A DNA stretch of 27,839 nt from a phage: assembly GCA_023859445.1 (NCBI GenBank), contig GCA_023859445.1_4337.1; one strand, given 5' to 3'. Of this stretch, positions 2,492 to 18,441 are shown in pieces. A program made the position numbers and the translations under genes. Below the pieces are notes generated by a model that was not told where the DNA came from, searched no databases, and saw only the letters and a list, made by a program, of their open reading frames with translations. The first letter of the stretch is position 1, and each line of letters opens with the position of its first letter.

Positions 2492-2521
2492 TTGCACACC
2501 ACAACATAATAGGGTACTATT
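2492..2521 (+). promoter_or_regulatory. Conserved phage promoter, copy 1 (TTGCAC-N17-TACTAT; palindrome AATAGGGTACTATT)
   Basis: -35 2492-2497, -10 2515-2520, palindrome 2508-2521; 35 nt upstream of the 2555 gene. Confidence 0.5.
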
Positions 2522-3785: not shown

Positions 3786-3815
3786 TTGCACACTAAGATA
3801 GAATAGGCTACTATT
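3786..3815 (+). promoter_or_regulatory. Conserved phage promoter, copy 2 (TTGCAC-N17-TACTAT; palindrome AATAGGCTACTATT)
   Basis: -35 3786-3791, -10 3809-3814, palindrome 3802-3815; near-identical to copy 1 over about 35 bp including downstream AAACGAGA. Confidence 0.5.
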
Positions 3816-3963: not shown

Positions 3964-4392
3964 ATGAATAACAAAAACGAAGTATTCGAGTACTTGGTAG
4001 CGGCAATGCACCTAACGCTGGACGAACGTAAGGCACACAAGCAACAGTGCGAAGACCTGGCGCATGAGGTGCTGTCACTTAAGAATCAGTTACGTGATGC
4101 GTCAGCGCAGATTAAGGAGCTACATATGGCGCTGGTCAAAGCTACGGGCGACGCGGAGGCGTACAAACTTATCCGCAAACAGGAGCAATCCGGTTGCCGT
4201 AAAGAGGATACCCAGGAATGCGAGCATGATTGGGTGCTAGATGAAAAAGGGGACTACTTCATTTGCGCTAAATGCGGTAAGCAAGAATCGGAATTGAGCG
4301 ATTGCCAACACGCTAATACCGTCGGTTTGCGCAAAGGCTTTGCGCCGGGTTTTACTAAAAAGTGTCTTGATTGCGGGGCTAAACTGAAATGA
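3964..4392 (+). CDS. Coiled-coil protein with C-terminal CxxC...CxxC zinc-ribbon-like motif (142 aa)
   Basis: ORF track; CAKCG and CLDCG pairs near the C-terminus. Confidence 0.55.
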   Translation: MNNKNEVFEYLVAAMHLTLDERKAHKQQCEDLAHEVLSLKNQLRDASAQIKELHMALVKATGDAEAYKLIRKQEQSGCRKEDTQECEHDWVLDEKGDYFICAKCGKQESELSDCQHANTVGLRKGFAPGFTKKCLDCGAKLK

Positions 4393-4592
4393 CCAGCATC
4401 CTTTTTATCTGGGTACTGTCCGCAGGCCAGATGCAACTAGCGGCATCAGAAACGTTTTATTCGATGGAGGCGTGCCAGTCAGCGGCACGCGCCGCAGAGA
4501 ACGCGCACTTCCTGTTTCAGGGCGACAAGCCCAACGATTCGGAGGTACGCGCTATCTGCTCACCTAAGCGACTTGGTAAACAGGAGAAATAA
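4389..4592 (+). CDS. Hypothetical small protein with hydrophobic N-terminus (67 aa)
   Basis: ORF track; ATGA overlap with upstream gene. Confidence 0.45.
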   Translation: MTSILFIWVLSAGQMQLAASETFYSMEACQSAARAAENAHFLFQGDKPNDSEVRAICSPKRLGKQEK

Positions 4593-4885
4593 TGTCGTTA
4601 GCAACTGACATCCTGAAACGAAGCGGCCTTGCGCCGCTGTCGCCGAGAGCGAATACGCGTATACACAAGCGCCGCCGTAATGCACTGTACCCCGAGATTC
4701 AGGCCAGACGCAAAGCGGTCCGCGCCTGTGGATTCCAGAACGGGAAGGCTGTGAATCTCGGTGAGTTCAAAACACAGGAACGTGCAGCTATAGCTAATCG
4801 GTTATTTAATTACTGGAAATCGCTTGGATACGATGATATTCCGACGAAACCACAGAGACGACAATACATCTGGCGGCACAAATAA
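4592..4885 (+). CDS. Hypothetical basic protein (97 aa)
   Basis: ORF track; start overlaps upstream stop; Arg/Lys-rich. Confidence 0.5.
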   Translation: MSLATDILKRSGLAPLSPRANTRIHKRRRNALYPEIQARRKAVRACGFQNGKAVNLGEFKTQERAAIANRLFNYWKSLGYDDIPTKPQRRQYIWRHK

Positions 4886-4915
4886 ACAACTATTAGGATA
4901 ATTCCTACCCGTGGT

Positions 4916-4955
4916 ATCCTCCAGTTACTGCATACTTAATACGCACCTGGAGGAT
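4916..4955 (+). promoter_or_regulatory. Hairpin sequestering the SD of the first lysis gene
   Basis: Perfect 9-bp inverted repeat ATCCTCCAG (4916-4924) / CTGGAGGAT (4947-4955), 22-nt loop; right arm contains SD GGAGGA (4949-4954), 6 nt before TTG 4961. Confidence 0.45.
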
Positions 4956-4960
4956 TCATC

Positions 4961-5269
4961 TTGGATAAATTTACTGAAACAGTGACGGGGTGGCTTCTCG
5001 CTGCCGCACTGGTCGGTGGATTGGTCGGGCTAAGACAACATAAAAAGTCTATATCCGGGCCGATTGACGGACTGGTATTTCTTCTCACCGGCTTCGCGTG
5101 TGCTATTTTCGGTGCACCTCTTGCCGCTCAATGGTTCGGTATTACCGGTGAGCGTGAGATAGCTGGCCTCGGATTCATCATTGCCATTCTCTGGATGCCT
5201 ATCTATTCCCGCCTTTCTGGCATCGTATCGGGTGGCGATATTGCCCGCCCAGGAGGACCGAATGACTGA
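4961..5269 (+). CDS. Putative holin, three predicted TM segments (102 aa from TTG; alternative GTG at 4982)
   Basis: ORF track; three hydrophobic stretches and charged C-terminus; directly upstream of the endolysin; non-ATG start. Confidence 0.55.
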   Translation: MDKFTETVTGWLLAAALVGGLVGLRQHKKSISGPIDGLVFLLTGFACAIFGAPLAAQWFGITGEREIAGLGFIIAILWMPIYSRLSGIVSGGDIARPGGPND

Positions 5270-5534
5270 GCTATTCTGGTTTGTCGTAATGCTGGCAATG
5301 GGCGCTTCGTCCCTGTTCAACGTGTATAATGAACGCGTGGACGACGGGCTGTTCGGGCGTGTTCTCTATATCCTGACTGCTATCGTCTGTGCCGCCGGAT
5401 GTATTCACCTGTTACAGGGCAGCATGTCGCCTACGCTGCCTGAGACATTAATCACATTAGTCGCGCTGCGCCAGATTCGCCAGGCGTGGCTGTCATACGG
5501 AGGGCATAAGCGTGTCTCGAAACATTTCAGATAA
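5262..5534 (+). CDS. Second small membrane protein of the lysis cassette, two TM segments (90 aa; holin or antiholin candidate)
   Basis: ATG 5262 with SD AGGAGG (5251-5256), overlapping the upstream stop; two hydrophobic segments. Confidence 0.5.
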   Translation: MTELFWFVVMLAMGASSLFNVYNERVDDGLFGRVLYILTAIVCAAGCIHLLQGSMSPTLPETLITLVALRQIRQAWLSYGGHKRVSKHFR

Positions 5535-6000
5535 TGGATTGCATTTTACCGCCGCGTTCGAGGGGTTCCGTGGAACCGCGTATCGTGCTACGTCGAACGA
5601 GAAGTACCTGACTATTGGCTACGGGCACTACGGACCGGACGTAACCCCGGGTAAGACCATCACCCCGGGGCAAGGCCTCCTGTTACTGAATCGTGATATG
5701 GCTAAGGCCGTAGCTGCGGTTGACGCAGCAGCACACCATTCATTGACACAGGCACAGTTCGACGCAGTGTGCGACCTGGTGTATAACGCGGGTGCCGGTG
5801 TGATTGCGGCTACTACTGGCACAGGTAAGGCACTGCGTTCTGGTGACGTCACGACTCTGCGGGCTAAGCTGGCGCTGTTCATCAACCAGAACGGCAAACC
5901 GATACTTGGACTGCGTCGTCGTACCGCCGGTCGTCTGGCGCTGTTCGACGGTAAACCGTGGCAGGAGGCTGAGGCTATCGGGCGCGCGGTGAAAGGTTGA
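5512..6000 (+). CDS. Endolysin, GH24 phage lysozyme (P22 gp19 / T4 E-like)
   Basis: ORF track; GTG start with SD GGAGGG (5499-5504); conserved N-terminal pattern FEGFRGTAYRATSNEKYLTIGYGHYG and C-terminal RR..ALF recalled from GH24 lysozymes. Confidence 0.85.
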   Translation: MSRNISDNGLHFTAAFEGFRGTAYRATSNEKYLTIGYGHYGPDVTPGKTITPGQGLLLLNRDMAKAVAAVDAAAHHSLTQAQFDAVCDLVYNAGAGVIAATTGTGKALRSGDVTTLRAKLALFINQNGKPILGLRRRTAGRLALFDGKPWQEAEAIGRAVKG

Positions 6001-6064
6001 CACCTGAGACTAATCCGACGATACTTAAATCACCTCCTGTTCCATACCTCTGCTCTCCAGTTTT

Positions 6065-6097
6065 ATCCCGGCCCTGACCCAGCCGGGATTTTTTTTA
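6065..6097 (+). terminator. Intrinsic terminator after the lysis cassette
   Basis: Stem TCCCGGC/GCCGGGA (6066-6072 / 6082-6088), 9-nt loop, followed by 8 T. Confidence 0.7.
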
Positions 6098-6118
6098 TCT
6101 ATTTTCTGCAATGACTAG

Positions 6119-6147
6119 TTGACTATTACCTACGACCCTATTATATT
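6119..6147 (+). promoter_or_regulatory. Candidate sigma70 promoter (TTGACT-17-TATATT)
   Basis: -35 6119-6124, -10 6142-6147; about 35 nt upstream of the 6181 gene. Confidence 0.45.
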
Positions 6148-13298: not shown

Positions 13299-13328
13299 AA
13301 TAGTACCCTATTATGTTGGTGTCTGCAA
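13299..13328 (-). promoter_or_regulatory. Conserved phage promoter, copy 3 (TTGCAG-N17-TACTAT, minus strand)
   Basis: -35 complement of 13323-13328, -10 complement of 13300-13305; palindrome AATAGTACCCTATT at 13299-13312. Confidence 0.5.
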
Positions 13329-13647: not shown

Positions 13648-14034
13648 ATGAATCTTAAAGCAACTGTCGTAGCGGGAGCATGTTTCATCATCCTGGCTTA
13701 CGCACACGGCATCTACCAGTATCGCAGCGGCTGGAACGGAGGCCGGGCGAATCTCGTTTCGCAGCAACAGCAGAAAGCACAGGCTGAGCTTGTGAAGAAA
13801 ACACAACGGCAGCAGCAGGATGAATCAAAGGCCGCAGCCGCCGATAACGAAGGCAAGACGAAATCAGAGGTGATCACCCGTGAAGTCGTTAAGTACATTA
13901 AAACGCCTGGCCGCAGCGTGTGCACTTTTGACCCTGAGCGCGTGCAGCTCAAGTCCCGCGCCGTCGCAAACGCCAATTCCATCCCCGGATACGACGATGA
14001 TGCAGCCGCCGTGCAAACTGGCACTGCCAAGTAA
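13648..14034 (+). CDS. Rz: Inner-membrane spanin (Rz-like i-spanin), 128 aa
   Basis: ORF track; N-terminal TM segment, then Gln/Lys/Glu-rich predicted coiled coil; contains an embedded lipoprotein gene in the +1 frame. Confidence 0.7.
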   Translation: MNLKATVVAGACFIILAYAHGIYQYRSGWNGGRANLVSQQQQKAQAELVKKTQRQQQDESKAAAADNEGKTKSEVITREVVKYIKTPGRSVCTFDPERVQLKSRAVANANSIPGYDDDAAAVQTGTAK

Positions 14035-15881: not shown

Positions 15882-16049
15882 GTGGAAATTAAATATGTAC
15901 CAATGCCGATTACCATCGAGCAGAAGCGAGAATATAACCGTCGGGGGTTCCGTGTAGTAGATGCTCGTTTCGCACCAGAAGGTGCCGTGGTAGAATCGGC
16001 TAAAGAAGAGACACCGCGCCGCCAGCGCCGGGCGAAATCAGAGGAATAA
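15882..16049 (+). CDS. Small basic protein (55 aa; GTG start, in-frame ATG at 15903)
   Basis: SD AGGAG 15869-15873; codons counted to TAA 16047-16049; below track cutoff. Confidence 0.35.
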   Translation: MEIKYVPMPITIEQKREYNRRGFRVVDARFAPEGAVVESAKEETPRRQRRAKSEE

Positions 16050-18028: not shown

Positions 18029-18441
18029 TGGGCTACTTTGAGGACTTAACAAAAGCGTTCGATGTTCCGCTGGTAGCCTTCGGAACCGCCAACGGCATCA
18101 AGGTCGCGCTTGAAAACATCGACGCGCCGACGTCAACCGATACGCCATATCTGGCAAGTTACATGTTACTGGCGGATACCGAGCAAGCAGATTTGTTCTT
18201 CACGGAACAACGCGCGGGTGTTTATCAGGTCGACATTAACTACGCATCGGTGAAAGGTAGCGCGCCAATCAATAAAATGGCAGACTTACTTAACACGGCA
18301 TTCAAAGCAGGTAAGTCATTTTCTCGTAACGACATCTGCGCCGAGGTTCAATCGGTTAGCCTGGGGCCGCTGATTGTAGAAAACGGATGGGCCAAACGAC
18401 CATTGTCAATTAACTTTATTGCATTCACCAAGAGGCTGTGA
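18025..18441 (+). CDS. Tail terminator / tail completion protein (putative), 138 aa
   Basis: ORF track; ATGA overlap; located immediately before the major tail gene. Confidence 0.4.
   Translation: MMGYFEDLTKAFDVPLVAFGTANGIKVALENIDAPTSTDTPYLASYMLLADTEQADLFFTEQRAGVYQVDINYASVKGSAPINKMADLLNTAFKAGKSFSRNDICAEVQSVSLGPLIVENGWAKRPLSINFIAFTKRL

Follow-up and report, generated by a model that had tools for sequence, protein, structure and literature searches.

The holin leader and its hairpin

The stretch of DNA analysed here (27,839 nucleotides, contig GCA_023859445.1_4337.1; hereafter the window) belongs to Kagunavirus and comes from a K1H-like coliphage of the Guernseyvirinae. Its region 4500-6100 is matched by 252 phage records in all and shares 95% identity with Escherichia phage K1H and its Kagunavirus relatives. 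The subject of the present analysis is the short leader (4912-4960) in front of the holin gene of this phage, which is located at 4961-5269 on the + strand and is read from a TTG start into a protein of 102 amino acids (aa). The gene is a class I-like holin gene, of predicted activity, and stands first in a cassette that continues with a holin-like gene and a lysozyme gene. Its product matches PHROG 2359 'holin' (E = 2e-32), and TMHMM predicts three transmembrane domains (TMDs) in the Snoke annotation record of the holin. The Pfam search with the same protein returned sub-threshold noise only, with no match to a Pfam holin family, and no experimental work on the PHROG 2359-type holin family was found in the literature. 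An earlier note on this DNA, made from the sequence alone, had called the gene holin-like; the PHROG match, the three hydrophobic segments of the protein and the position of the gene at the head of the cassette bear this out.

The leader holds a hairpin on the + strand with a 5' arm at 4916-4924 (ATCCTCCAG), a loop of 22 nt at 4925-4946 and a 3' arm at 4947-4955 (CTGGAGGAT). Both an inverted-repeat search and direct reading identify CTGGAGGAT as the perfect reverse complement of ATCCTCCAG over 9 bp. The 3' arm contains the Shine-Dalgarno (SD) sequence of the holin gene, GGAGGA at 4949-4954, which ends 6 nt 5' of TTG 4961; the earlier note had placed all of these elements correctly. Since the SD lies within the 3' arm, transcripts carrying the 5' arm must melt the hairpin to initiate at TTG 4961. 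The same note had proposed this, and the computed energies are in line with it: the predicted cost of opening the region 4947-4975 is 14.9 kcal/mol for the long leader and drops to 6.1 kcal/mol for an RNA starting at 4927. The hairpin is present in both the minimum free energy and the centroid folds (z = -2.5) and amounts to -14.2 kcal/mol when folded alone. With an unpaired probability of 0.00, the holin SD is the least accessible (rank 1) among the 56 open reading frame (ORF) starts with a recognisable SD in the window. By the rules of de Smit and van Duin, covering an SD with a helix of -14 kcal/mol should reduce initiation by orders of magnitude.

Perfect 9-bp inverted repeats are in themselves unremarkable, the window containing five of them against 3.6 +/- 2.5 in shuffled sequences. 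It is the exact position over the SD, together with the extreme conservation and the covariation across clades described below, that marks this hairpin as non-random. Apart from one weak and unrelated match at 18165, no other copy of the 5' arm region was found in the window at up to 3 mismatches. The Rfam search of 4700-5300 gave no match at E up to 1, and the terminator scan of 4300-5600 gave none either; the window hairpin has a loop of 22 nt and a tail, UUCAUCUU, free of a U-tract, and so differs from an intrinsic terminator with its short loop and U-tract 3' of the stem.

Once the 5' arm is removed in silico, positions 4949-4953 of the SD are predicted to pair in part with CUUCU at 4994-4999, in holin codons 12-13, leaving the SD unpaired at about 0.34. 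This pairing is moderately conserved and is a possible second, weaker masking structure. Two other candidates for control at this site were rejected. CsrA-type GGA sites (4896-4898 and the SD) are not maintained, the upstream GGA being lost in about half of the Kagunavirus loci. As for translational coupling, the stop codon of the upstream gene (4883-4885) is 31 nt 5' of the hairpin and the upstream gene itself differs among phages.

Conservation and covariation of the stem

Both arms of the hairpin are invariant in 34 related loci, and the loop is nearly invariant within Kagunavirus. In the same 34 loci, positions 4916-4975, and the wider segment from about 4910 to 4985 as well, are conserved at about 99%, while the third-codon positions of the holin gene vary freely and the identity of the protein is only about 80%. 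The same picture emerges from 121 phage records: 114 of them match an 86-nt element at 95% identity or more, and just 25 do so when the holin gene is taken in as well. The gene upstream of the leader codes for an ORF41-like protein of 97 aa in the window and for an HslV-family peptidase in other Kagunaviruses, and the module is unchanged with either type. The junction of this mosaic lies right at the stop codon of the upstream gene, next to the intergenic stretch 4886-4911. A further trace of recombination is seen in Salmonella phage VT223, a Jerseyvirus (locus L035, 2000-2270), where a decayed module of the Kagunavirus type, with TG changed to CG and the outer pair broken, precedes a 48-aa remnant in which the first 17 codons of the holin are retained. 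Directly behind it stand the phage's resident hairpin module, of the Jerseyvirus type, and its holin gene, so that the arrangement reads as a recombination scar at the regulatory module; the 48-aa remnant protein also forms a cluster of its own (P0034).

Most decisive for the covariation were more distant relatives of the holin, which were gathered by profile search; the leaders compared amount to 28 distinct ones from five clades. Near to the window, pairing is kept by G-U wobbles, two of them in L038 (78% identity), where ATCCTCTGG pairs with CTGGAGGAT, and one in TU03, and the loop-proximal changes of L010 and L022 make the stem longer. The unclassified contig L039, with 36% protein identity and the same cassette, has the arms ATCCCCCAG and CTGGGGGAT with a U-A to C-G exchange, and its longer stem of 13 bp has UUUAUUUU and then a TTG start behind it. 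The leader of Dhillonvirus, whose holins (158 records) are about 54% identical to the homologue P0019, pairs GTCCCAGTGAG with CTTACTGGGAC and continues with a U-run and an ATG. The Jerseyvirus leader pairs AATCTCCGAAGGT with ACTTTCGGAGATT, again ahead of a U-run, and its start codon is GTG. The Cornellvirus-like leader, with CTCCGTATGG and CCTATACGGAG, is free of a U-run and leads to an ATG. The inner stems of Dhillonvirus, Jerseyvirus and Cornellvirus differ from one another, yet each stays complementary.

Across the clades the arms measure 9-13 bp and their spacing 6-22 nt, with loops of 6-13 nt in L038, L039, Dhillonvirus and Jerseyvirus. In L039, Dhillonvirus and Jerseyvirus the combination of a stem of 11-13 bp, a 6-nt loop and a U-run gives the hairpin a terminator-like form directly 5' of the holin gene. 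The start codon lies 5-12 nt past the stem throughout, and three lineages have a weak one, namely TTG (Kagunavirus and L039) or GTG (Jerseyvirus).

With the leaders anchored on an invariant U-A pair, pair positions -1, +3 and +4 are canonical in all 21 sequences compared, with three or four pair types at each. In an arms-only alignment 95% of the cells are paired, and both sides have changed in seven of the ten pairs. The covariation score is 0.767 as compared to 0.199 for shuffles, none of 500 reaching as high, and slid registers score 0.113 at most. In Kagunavirus, Jerseyvirus, Cornellvirus, Dhillonvirus and one unclassified lineage alike, the stem persists through compensatory and wobble exchanges. 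Folding of clade representatives is in keeping with a function at the SD: the predicted accessibility of the SD region, 0.03-0.42 when the transcript is long, becomes 0.28-0.60 when it is truncated, with a rise in every case, the smallest gain being that of the Cornellvirus leader L075 (0.42 to 0.46). Taken together, we hold with high confidence that a conserved RNA helix masks the SD of the holin gene.

The module was not present in the more distant, ATG-start homologues examined (L042-L046 and that of Erwinia RF1). No further relatives of P0019 were found in IMG/VR or in the protein database, and Serratia phage Eta uses an unrelated, P22 gp13-like holin.

A promoter-like motif in the 5' arm and readings of the module

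The DNA of the 5' arm shares its letters with a second conserved feature. An extended -10-like element of the form TGnTAnnnT is located at 4912-4920 on the + strand (TGGTATCCT); the hexamer within it, TATCCT (4915-4920), reaches into the 5' arm. The motif occurs exactly once in each of the 28 distinct leaders, with the hexamer overlapping or abutting the 5' arm. It reads TG[G/C]TATCCT in Kagunavirus, where just the 'n' position varies (G or C), TGCTACTAT in L039, TGATATAGT in Dhillonvirus, TG[T/C]TAATCT in Jerseyvirus and TG[A/C]TAA[T/C]CT in Cornellvirus. At its 5' end, a MAFFT alignment across the clades has exactly six columns without any change, T, G, T, A, T and C (TG.TA...TC), the 'n' positions being variable, and among the six are the positions that define an extended -10. 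In every clade, direct reading further finds a purine 7 nt past the end of the hexamer, where the 5' arm comes to its 3' end, although the stems range from 9 to 13 bp. By this geometry, transcription in the window would start at about A4927. The single decayed copy of the motif, the one ahead of the holin remnant of VT223, has lost its TG.

Small palindromes that differ from clade to clade are seen just 5' of the TGn motif, namely TTAGGATAATTCCT in the window, TGATCA in L039 and ATTGACAAT in Cornellvirus. The window copy (4893-4906, + strand) is partly conserved, with TTAAGA variants, and might serve as a regulator site or form a small hairpin. The Cornellvirus copy, about 25 nt 5' of the hairpin in L075-L079, holds a perfect TTGACA, at a spacing wrong for a -35. 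As a group these palindromes may be clade-specific regulator sites.

Transcripts that carry the whole leader are to be expected. A promoter-like repeat, TTGCAC-N17-TACTAT, lies at 3786-3814 on the + strand, with a second copy at 2492-2520 on the same strand, and from its sequence the copy at 3786-3814 is the likely source of rightward transcripts reading into the holin gene. Since no + strand terminator is predicted ahead of the holin gene, between these repeats and 4961, read-through transcripts are expected.

These features can be joined in a model in which the leader 4912-4960 would be a conserved cis-regulatory module deciding which transcripts can make holin. Transcripts from the upstream genes would carry both arms, so that their SD would be masked and little holin would be made; in Dhillonvirus, Jerseyvirus and L039, with a U-run after the stem, many of the read-through transcripts would also terminate at the stem. 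RNA polymerase starting at about A4927 from an extended -10 promoter (TGGTATCCT) in the DNA of the 5' arm would produce a 34-nt leader lacking that arm, and only transcripts from this embedded promoter would expose the SD. The build-up of holin would then depend on a single promoter, probably a weak one, and on the weak TTG start, and would thereby time lysis. The logic would be that of the lysozyme gene (gene e) of T4, applied to a holin gene and to a promoter of the sigma-70 type. We consider the model as a whole to have an even chance of being correct. The existence of the embedded promoter, judged from the motif, appears about equally probable as its absence. The most specific form of the proposal, in which 9-13 nt of DNA would serve three functions, as the -10 of the lysis promoter, as the 5' arm of a terminator-like hairpin and as the anti-SD strand, such that transcripts would be told apart by origin, with internally born RNA alone able to make holin and all RNA entering from early genes terminated or silenced, is put forward tentatively and falls a little short of even likelihood.

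Several observations weigh against the model. The strict sigma-70 scan of 4300-5600 finds no promoter, and on direct reading the -35 region is poor, with 2-3 of 6 positions. The stem includes the final T of the hexamer (in Kagunavirus its A too), and the anti-SD sequence therefore dictates part of the resemblance to a -10. Chance alone makes TGnTAnnnT frequent, with 52 occurrences on the two strands of the window taken together. Literature on these genera yielded no transcription start site or RNA-seq, promoter-activity or structure-probing data. The SD is predicted to be just 30-60% open when the 5' arm is missing, because it can pair with downstream codons. The register of the arms-only alignment came from each sequence's own fold, and the clades share the module by descent, which means that the five lineages are not independent trials. 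Finally, if the embedded promoter were constitutive, it would not be obvious by what means lysis is delayed.

As the main rival, it is possible, although we think it rather unlikely, that there is no internal promoter and that upstream promoters supply all of the holin mRNA, always with the hairpin on it. Acting as partial terminator and SD occlusion, the hairpin would then together with the weak TTG start just throttle holin synthesis, so that a lethal concentration is reached late. Such an attenuator is assembled from demonstrated parts (the hairpin, the SD masking, the covariation and the weak starts) and agrees with the outcome of the sigma-70 consensus scan; the U-run forms of Dhillonvirus, Jerseyvirus and L039 resemble ordinary leaky terminators, and the downstream genes have strong SDs of their own. 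What it leaves unexplained is the invariance of exactly T, G, T, A and T where the surrounding sequence is unalignable across clades, as well as the fixed distance from the motif to the end of the 5' arm despite the changing stem length. Moreover, with a 13-bp terminator only 6 nt ahead of the start codon, little holin mRNA would remain. The U-run forms can also be read as part of an antitermination module, in which the hairpin would be a tR'-like terminator, TGnTAnnnT a -10-like sigma-70 pause site at which a phage factor loads onto RNA polymerase arriving from an upstream promoter, and only the modified polymerase would pass. A stem and U-run just 5' of the holin gene recall the arrangement pR'-tR'-S reported for lambda, and the clade-specific palindromes just 5' of the motif would have a place in such a scheme. 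However, no conserved promoter is found 10-30 nt 5' of the motif, a position taken by the end of a gene that differs among the phages, the annotation contains no Q-like gene, a U-tract is missing from the hairpin of the window and from that of Cornellvirus, and read-through transcripts would still be SD-masked. We regard antitermination as improbable.

The repeat, a perfect palindrome whose arm centres are separated by 31 bp or about three helical turns, might instead bind a dimeric DNA-binding regulator, the overlap with the SD being incidental. The near-invariance of the loop within Kagunavirus is not required of a simple hairpin and would suit an operator of this kind. The pattern of change in the stem points the other way: pairing is kept by G-U wobbles that are non-complementary in DNA (in the stems of L038, TU03, Dhillonvirus and Jerseyvirus), and the sequence and length of the arms and their spacing change between clades while complementarity stays. 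Such a pattern is the mark of an RNA helix rather than of a DNA operator, and we consider the operator highly improbable.

The earlier note had likened the leader to dual-start control in lambda S. In the full form of this reading, TTG 4961 and the in-frame GTG at 4982-4984 (+ strand) would give rise to holin and antiholin, with the hairpin setting their ratio as sdi does in lambda. The elements named there are present: the GTG is codon 8 of the holin (Val8), seven codons past the TTG, and the intervening extension MDKFTET is net acidic (-1). The GTG is also nucleotide-invariant within Kagunavirus, a small 6-bp hairpin at 4971-4985 could cover it, and lambda S would offer a precedent, since work by Blasi and colleagues in 1989 is said to have found that a leader hairpin controls its initiation. 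Nevertheless, the comparison is not supported. A GTG in frame within seven codons is a trivial occurrence, and its invariance is not specific to the GTG because synonymous change is suppressed over all of 4961-4985. No SD lies within 5-13 nt of GTG 4982 and nothing SD-like is present in GGATAAATTTACTGAAACA (4962-4981), the only SD being 27 nt away. Outside Kagunavirus Val8 is not conserved, being absent from P0019-P0033 and from the Dhillonvirus and Jerseyvirus homologues, while 'MD' and a short hydrophilic N-terminus at the first start are common to the clades; the retention of this 'MD..' N-terminus argues that the first start is the one used. An extra positive charge at the N-terminus defines S107 and S21-71 (PMC9636201), in contrast to the acidic extension seen here. 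The small hairpin over the GTG was rejected as a conserved structure, natural variants at 4975 and 4981 breaking it instead of compensating. A separate class II holin-like gene (5262-5534) exists and is the more likely place for any antiholin function. From its sequence context, GTG 4982 is most likely an ordinary valine codon and not a second start, and a dual start of the lambda S type appears very unlikely. The earlier note did not mention the promoter-like element over the 5' arm, nor that the hairpin takes a terminator-like form in relatives and that the module occurs in several genera.

Genomic setting and relation to known systems

The annotation of K1H has the same gene order as the window, with a 97-aa ORF (4592-4885 in the window), a 'holin', a second 'holin' and an endolysin. 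From the charge distribution of the first holin, an acidic N-terminus (-1) followed by a loop 1 at +3, the positive-inside rule makes an N-out/C-in topology likely; the TMHMM note in the Snoke record gives the opposite orientation. The second gene (5262-5534, + strand), a class II-like holin or antiholin candidate, matches PHROG 2508 (E = 1e-34) and has an ATG start and its own SD (AGGAGGA, 5251-5257). Its start overlaps the stop of the holin gene at 5262-5269, both being contained in ATGACTGA. The endolysin (5512-6000, + strand) is a phage lysozyme (PF00959) with a GTG start and the SD GGAGGG (5499-5504), and no N-terminal hydrophobic signal was found in it. Its GTG opens 23 nt ahead of the stop of the second gene (overlap 5512-5534), so that three overlapping lysis genes start with TTG, ATG and GTG in turn, and the two downstream of the holin carry strong SDs of their own. 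Rz/Rz1-like spanin genes, with positions mapped from ORF5 and ORF6 of K1H, lie outside the cassette at 13648-14034 (with an embedded frame), within the head-gene cluster about 8.4 kb off.

The upstream repeat belongs to a wider family of promoter-like sites. TTGCnC-N17-TACTAT is found at 2492-2520 (+), 3786-3814 (+) and 22247-22219 (-), with looser copies near 13299, 25922 and 11597. Its spacer is conserved and quasi-palindromic (ATAATAGGGTACTATT), and the 16-nt core has 12 matches at up to 2 mismatches as compared to 1.8 expected by chance. The family with TTGCAC has been given as 'phage promoters' (PMC9825357), and the motif appears in the literature as PHIRE 'phage RNAP promoters' (RNAP, RNA polymerase), with no RNA polymerase annotated in these phages. 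By its sequence it looks like a regulated sigma-70 promoter plus an operator. Two near-consensus sigma-70 promoter-like sites, at 5997-6025 (TTGACA-17-GATACT) and 6119-6147 (TTGACT-17-TATATT), both on the + strand, follow right after the endolysin stop and are predicted as HP5 and HP6 in the fBC-Eco01 paper. Other extended -10-like elements occur on the + strand at 15988, 22254 and 25990 (TGGTAGAAT, TGTTAGAAT and TGATACCAT); they are intergenic, 35-57 nt 5' of the starts of structural or tail genes, which hints that promoters of the extended -10 type may serve late genes in this phage.

The closest counterpart of the proposed mechanism is found in T4. In its genes e, soc, 49 and I-TevI, an inhibitory helix covers the ribosome-binding site and a late promoter is located in the DNA of the 5' strand (McPheeters et al. 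1986, reviewed in PMC3014915). In gene e, long early transcripts form the inhibitory helix whereas transcripts from the internal promoter cannot (PMC3014915). The window resembles gene e in being concerned with a lysis gene of a virulent phage, in the predicted sequestration of the SD on long transcripts initiated upstream, in the promoter-like element within the DNA of the 5' strand and in the conservation of the arrangement among relatives. The two differ in that gene e encodes the endolysin and the window gene the holin, and in that the gene e promoter is the gp55-dependent TATAAATA whereas the window has a putative sigma-70 extended -10 (TGnTAnnnT). In addition, the helix of the window type is also intrinsic-terminator-like in several clades, and the promoter and start are mapped for gene e while those of the window are inferred. 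A T4-type late promoter (TATAAATA, gp55/gp33) was not found in 4886-4960 and no sigma-like late factor is annotated in these phages; the module of the window is therefore an analogue of the gene e type and not a member of it.

Lambda S (S105/S107) and S21 (68/71) share with the window a holin gene that heads its cassette, a leader stem-loop that involves the SD and a class I-like protein with three TMDs. Their two starts are 2-3 codons apart, as compared to seven in the window, which has no second start with ribosome access of its own; the second start is not conserved and the extension is acidic. The window holin also lacks sequence homology to lambda S, and a separate second holin-like gene is present. 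In comparison to generic SD-occluding hairpins, that of the window is conserved by covariation across genera, is coupled to a promoter-like motif and has a terminator tail in some clades. L039, Dhillonvirus and Jerseyvirus are similar to lambda, with tR' upstream of S, in having a stem and then a U-run directly before the holin gene. Unlike in intrinsic terminators, the 3' arm of the module doubles as the SD and the start codon stands close behind the stem.

To our knowledge, the control of holin synthesis is understood for a few model phages only, namely lambda and phage 21 (dual starts) and T4 (RI/T). The Kagunavirus genome papers examined predict neither a promoter nor a terminator at the holin leader, and the leader has no promoter, terminator or RNA-structure label in the records and papers examined, a point on which the present analysis corrects the annotation. 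The module is a variation on an already known type of control, conserved over several genera with many therapeutic phage candidates. The timing of lysis is a major fitness trait of phages and a practical variable for therapeutic coliphages and Salmonella phages of these genera. If the proposed model is true, stem strength, the TG/-10 and the TTG start would provide a mutable handle on lysis time, and the module would explain how lysis genes can stand downstream of early genes without premature killing of the host. The logic of T4 gene e would then be in use beyond the T-even phages, with the present module as its first counterpart at the level of the holin, and lysis would be timed by this switch in Kagunavirus, Jerseyvirus, Cornellvirus and Dhillonvirus, four genera of virulent siphoviruses that depend on sigma-70 and comprise more than 600 sequenced phages.

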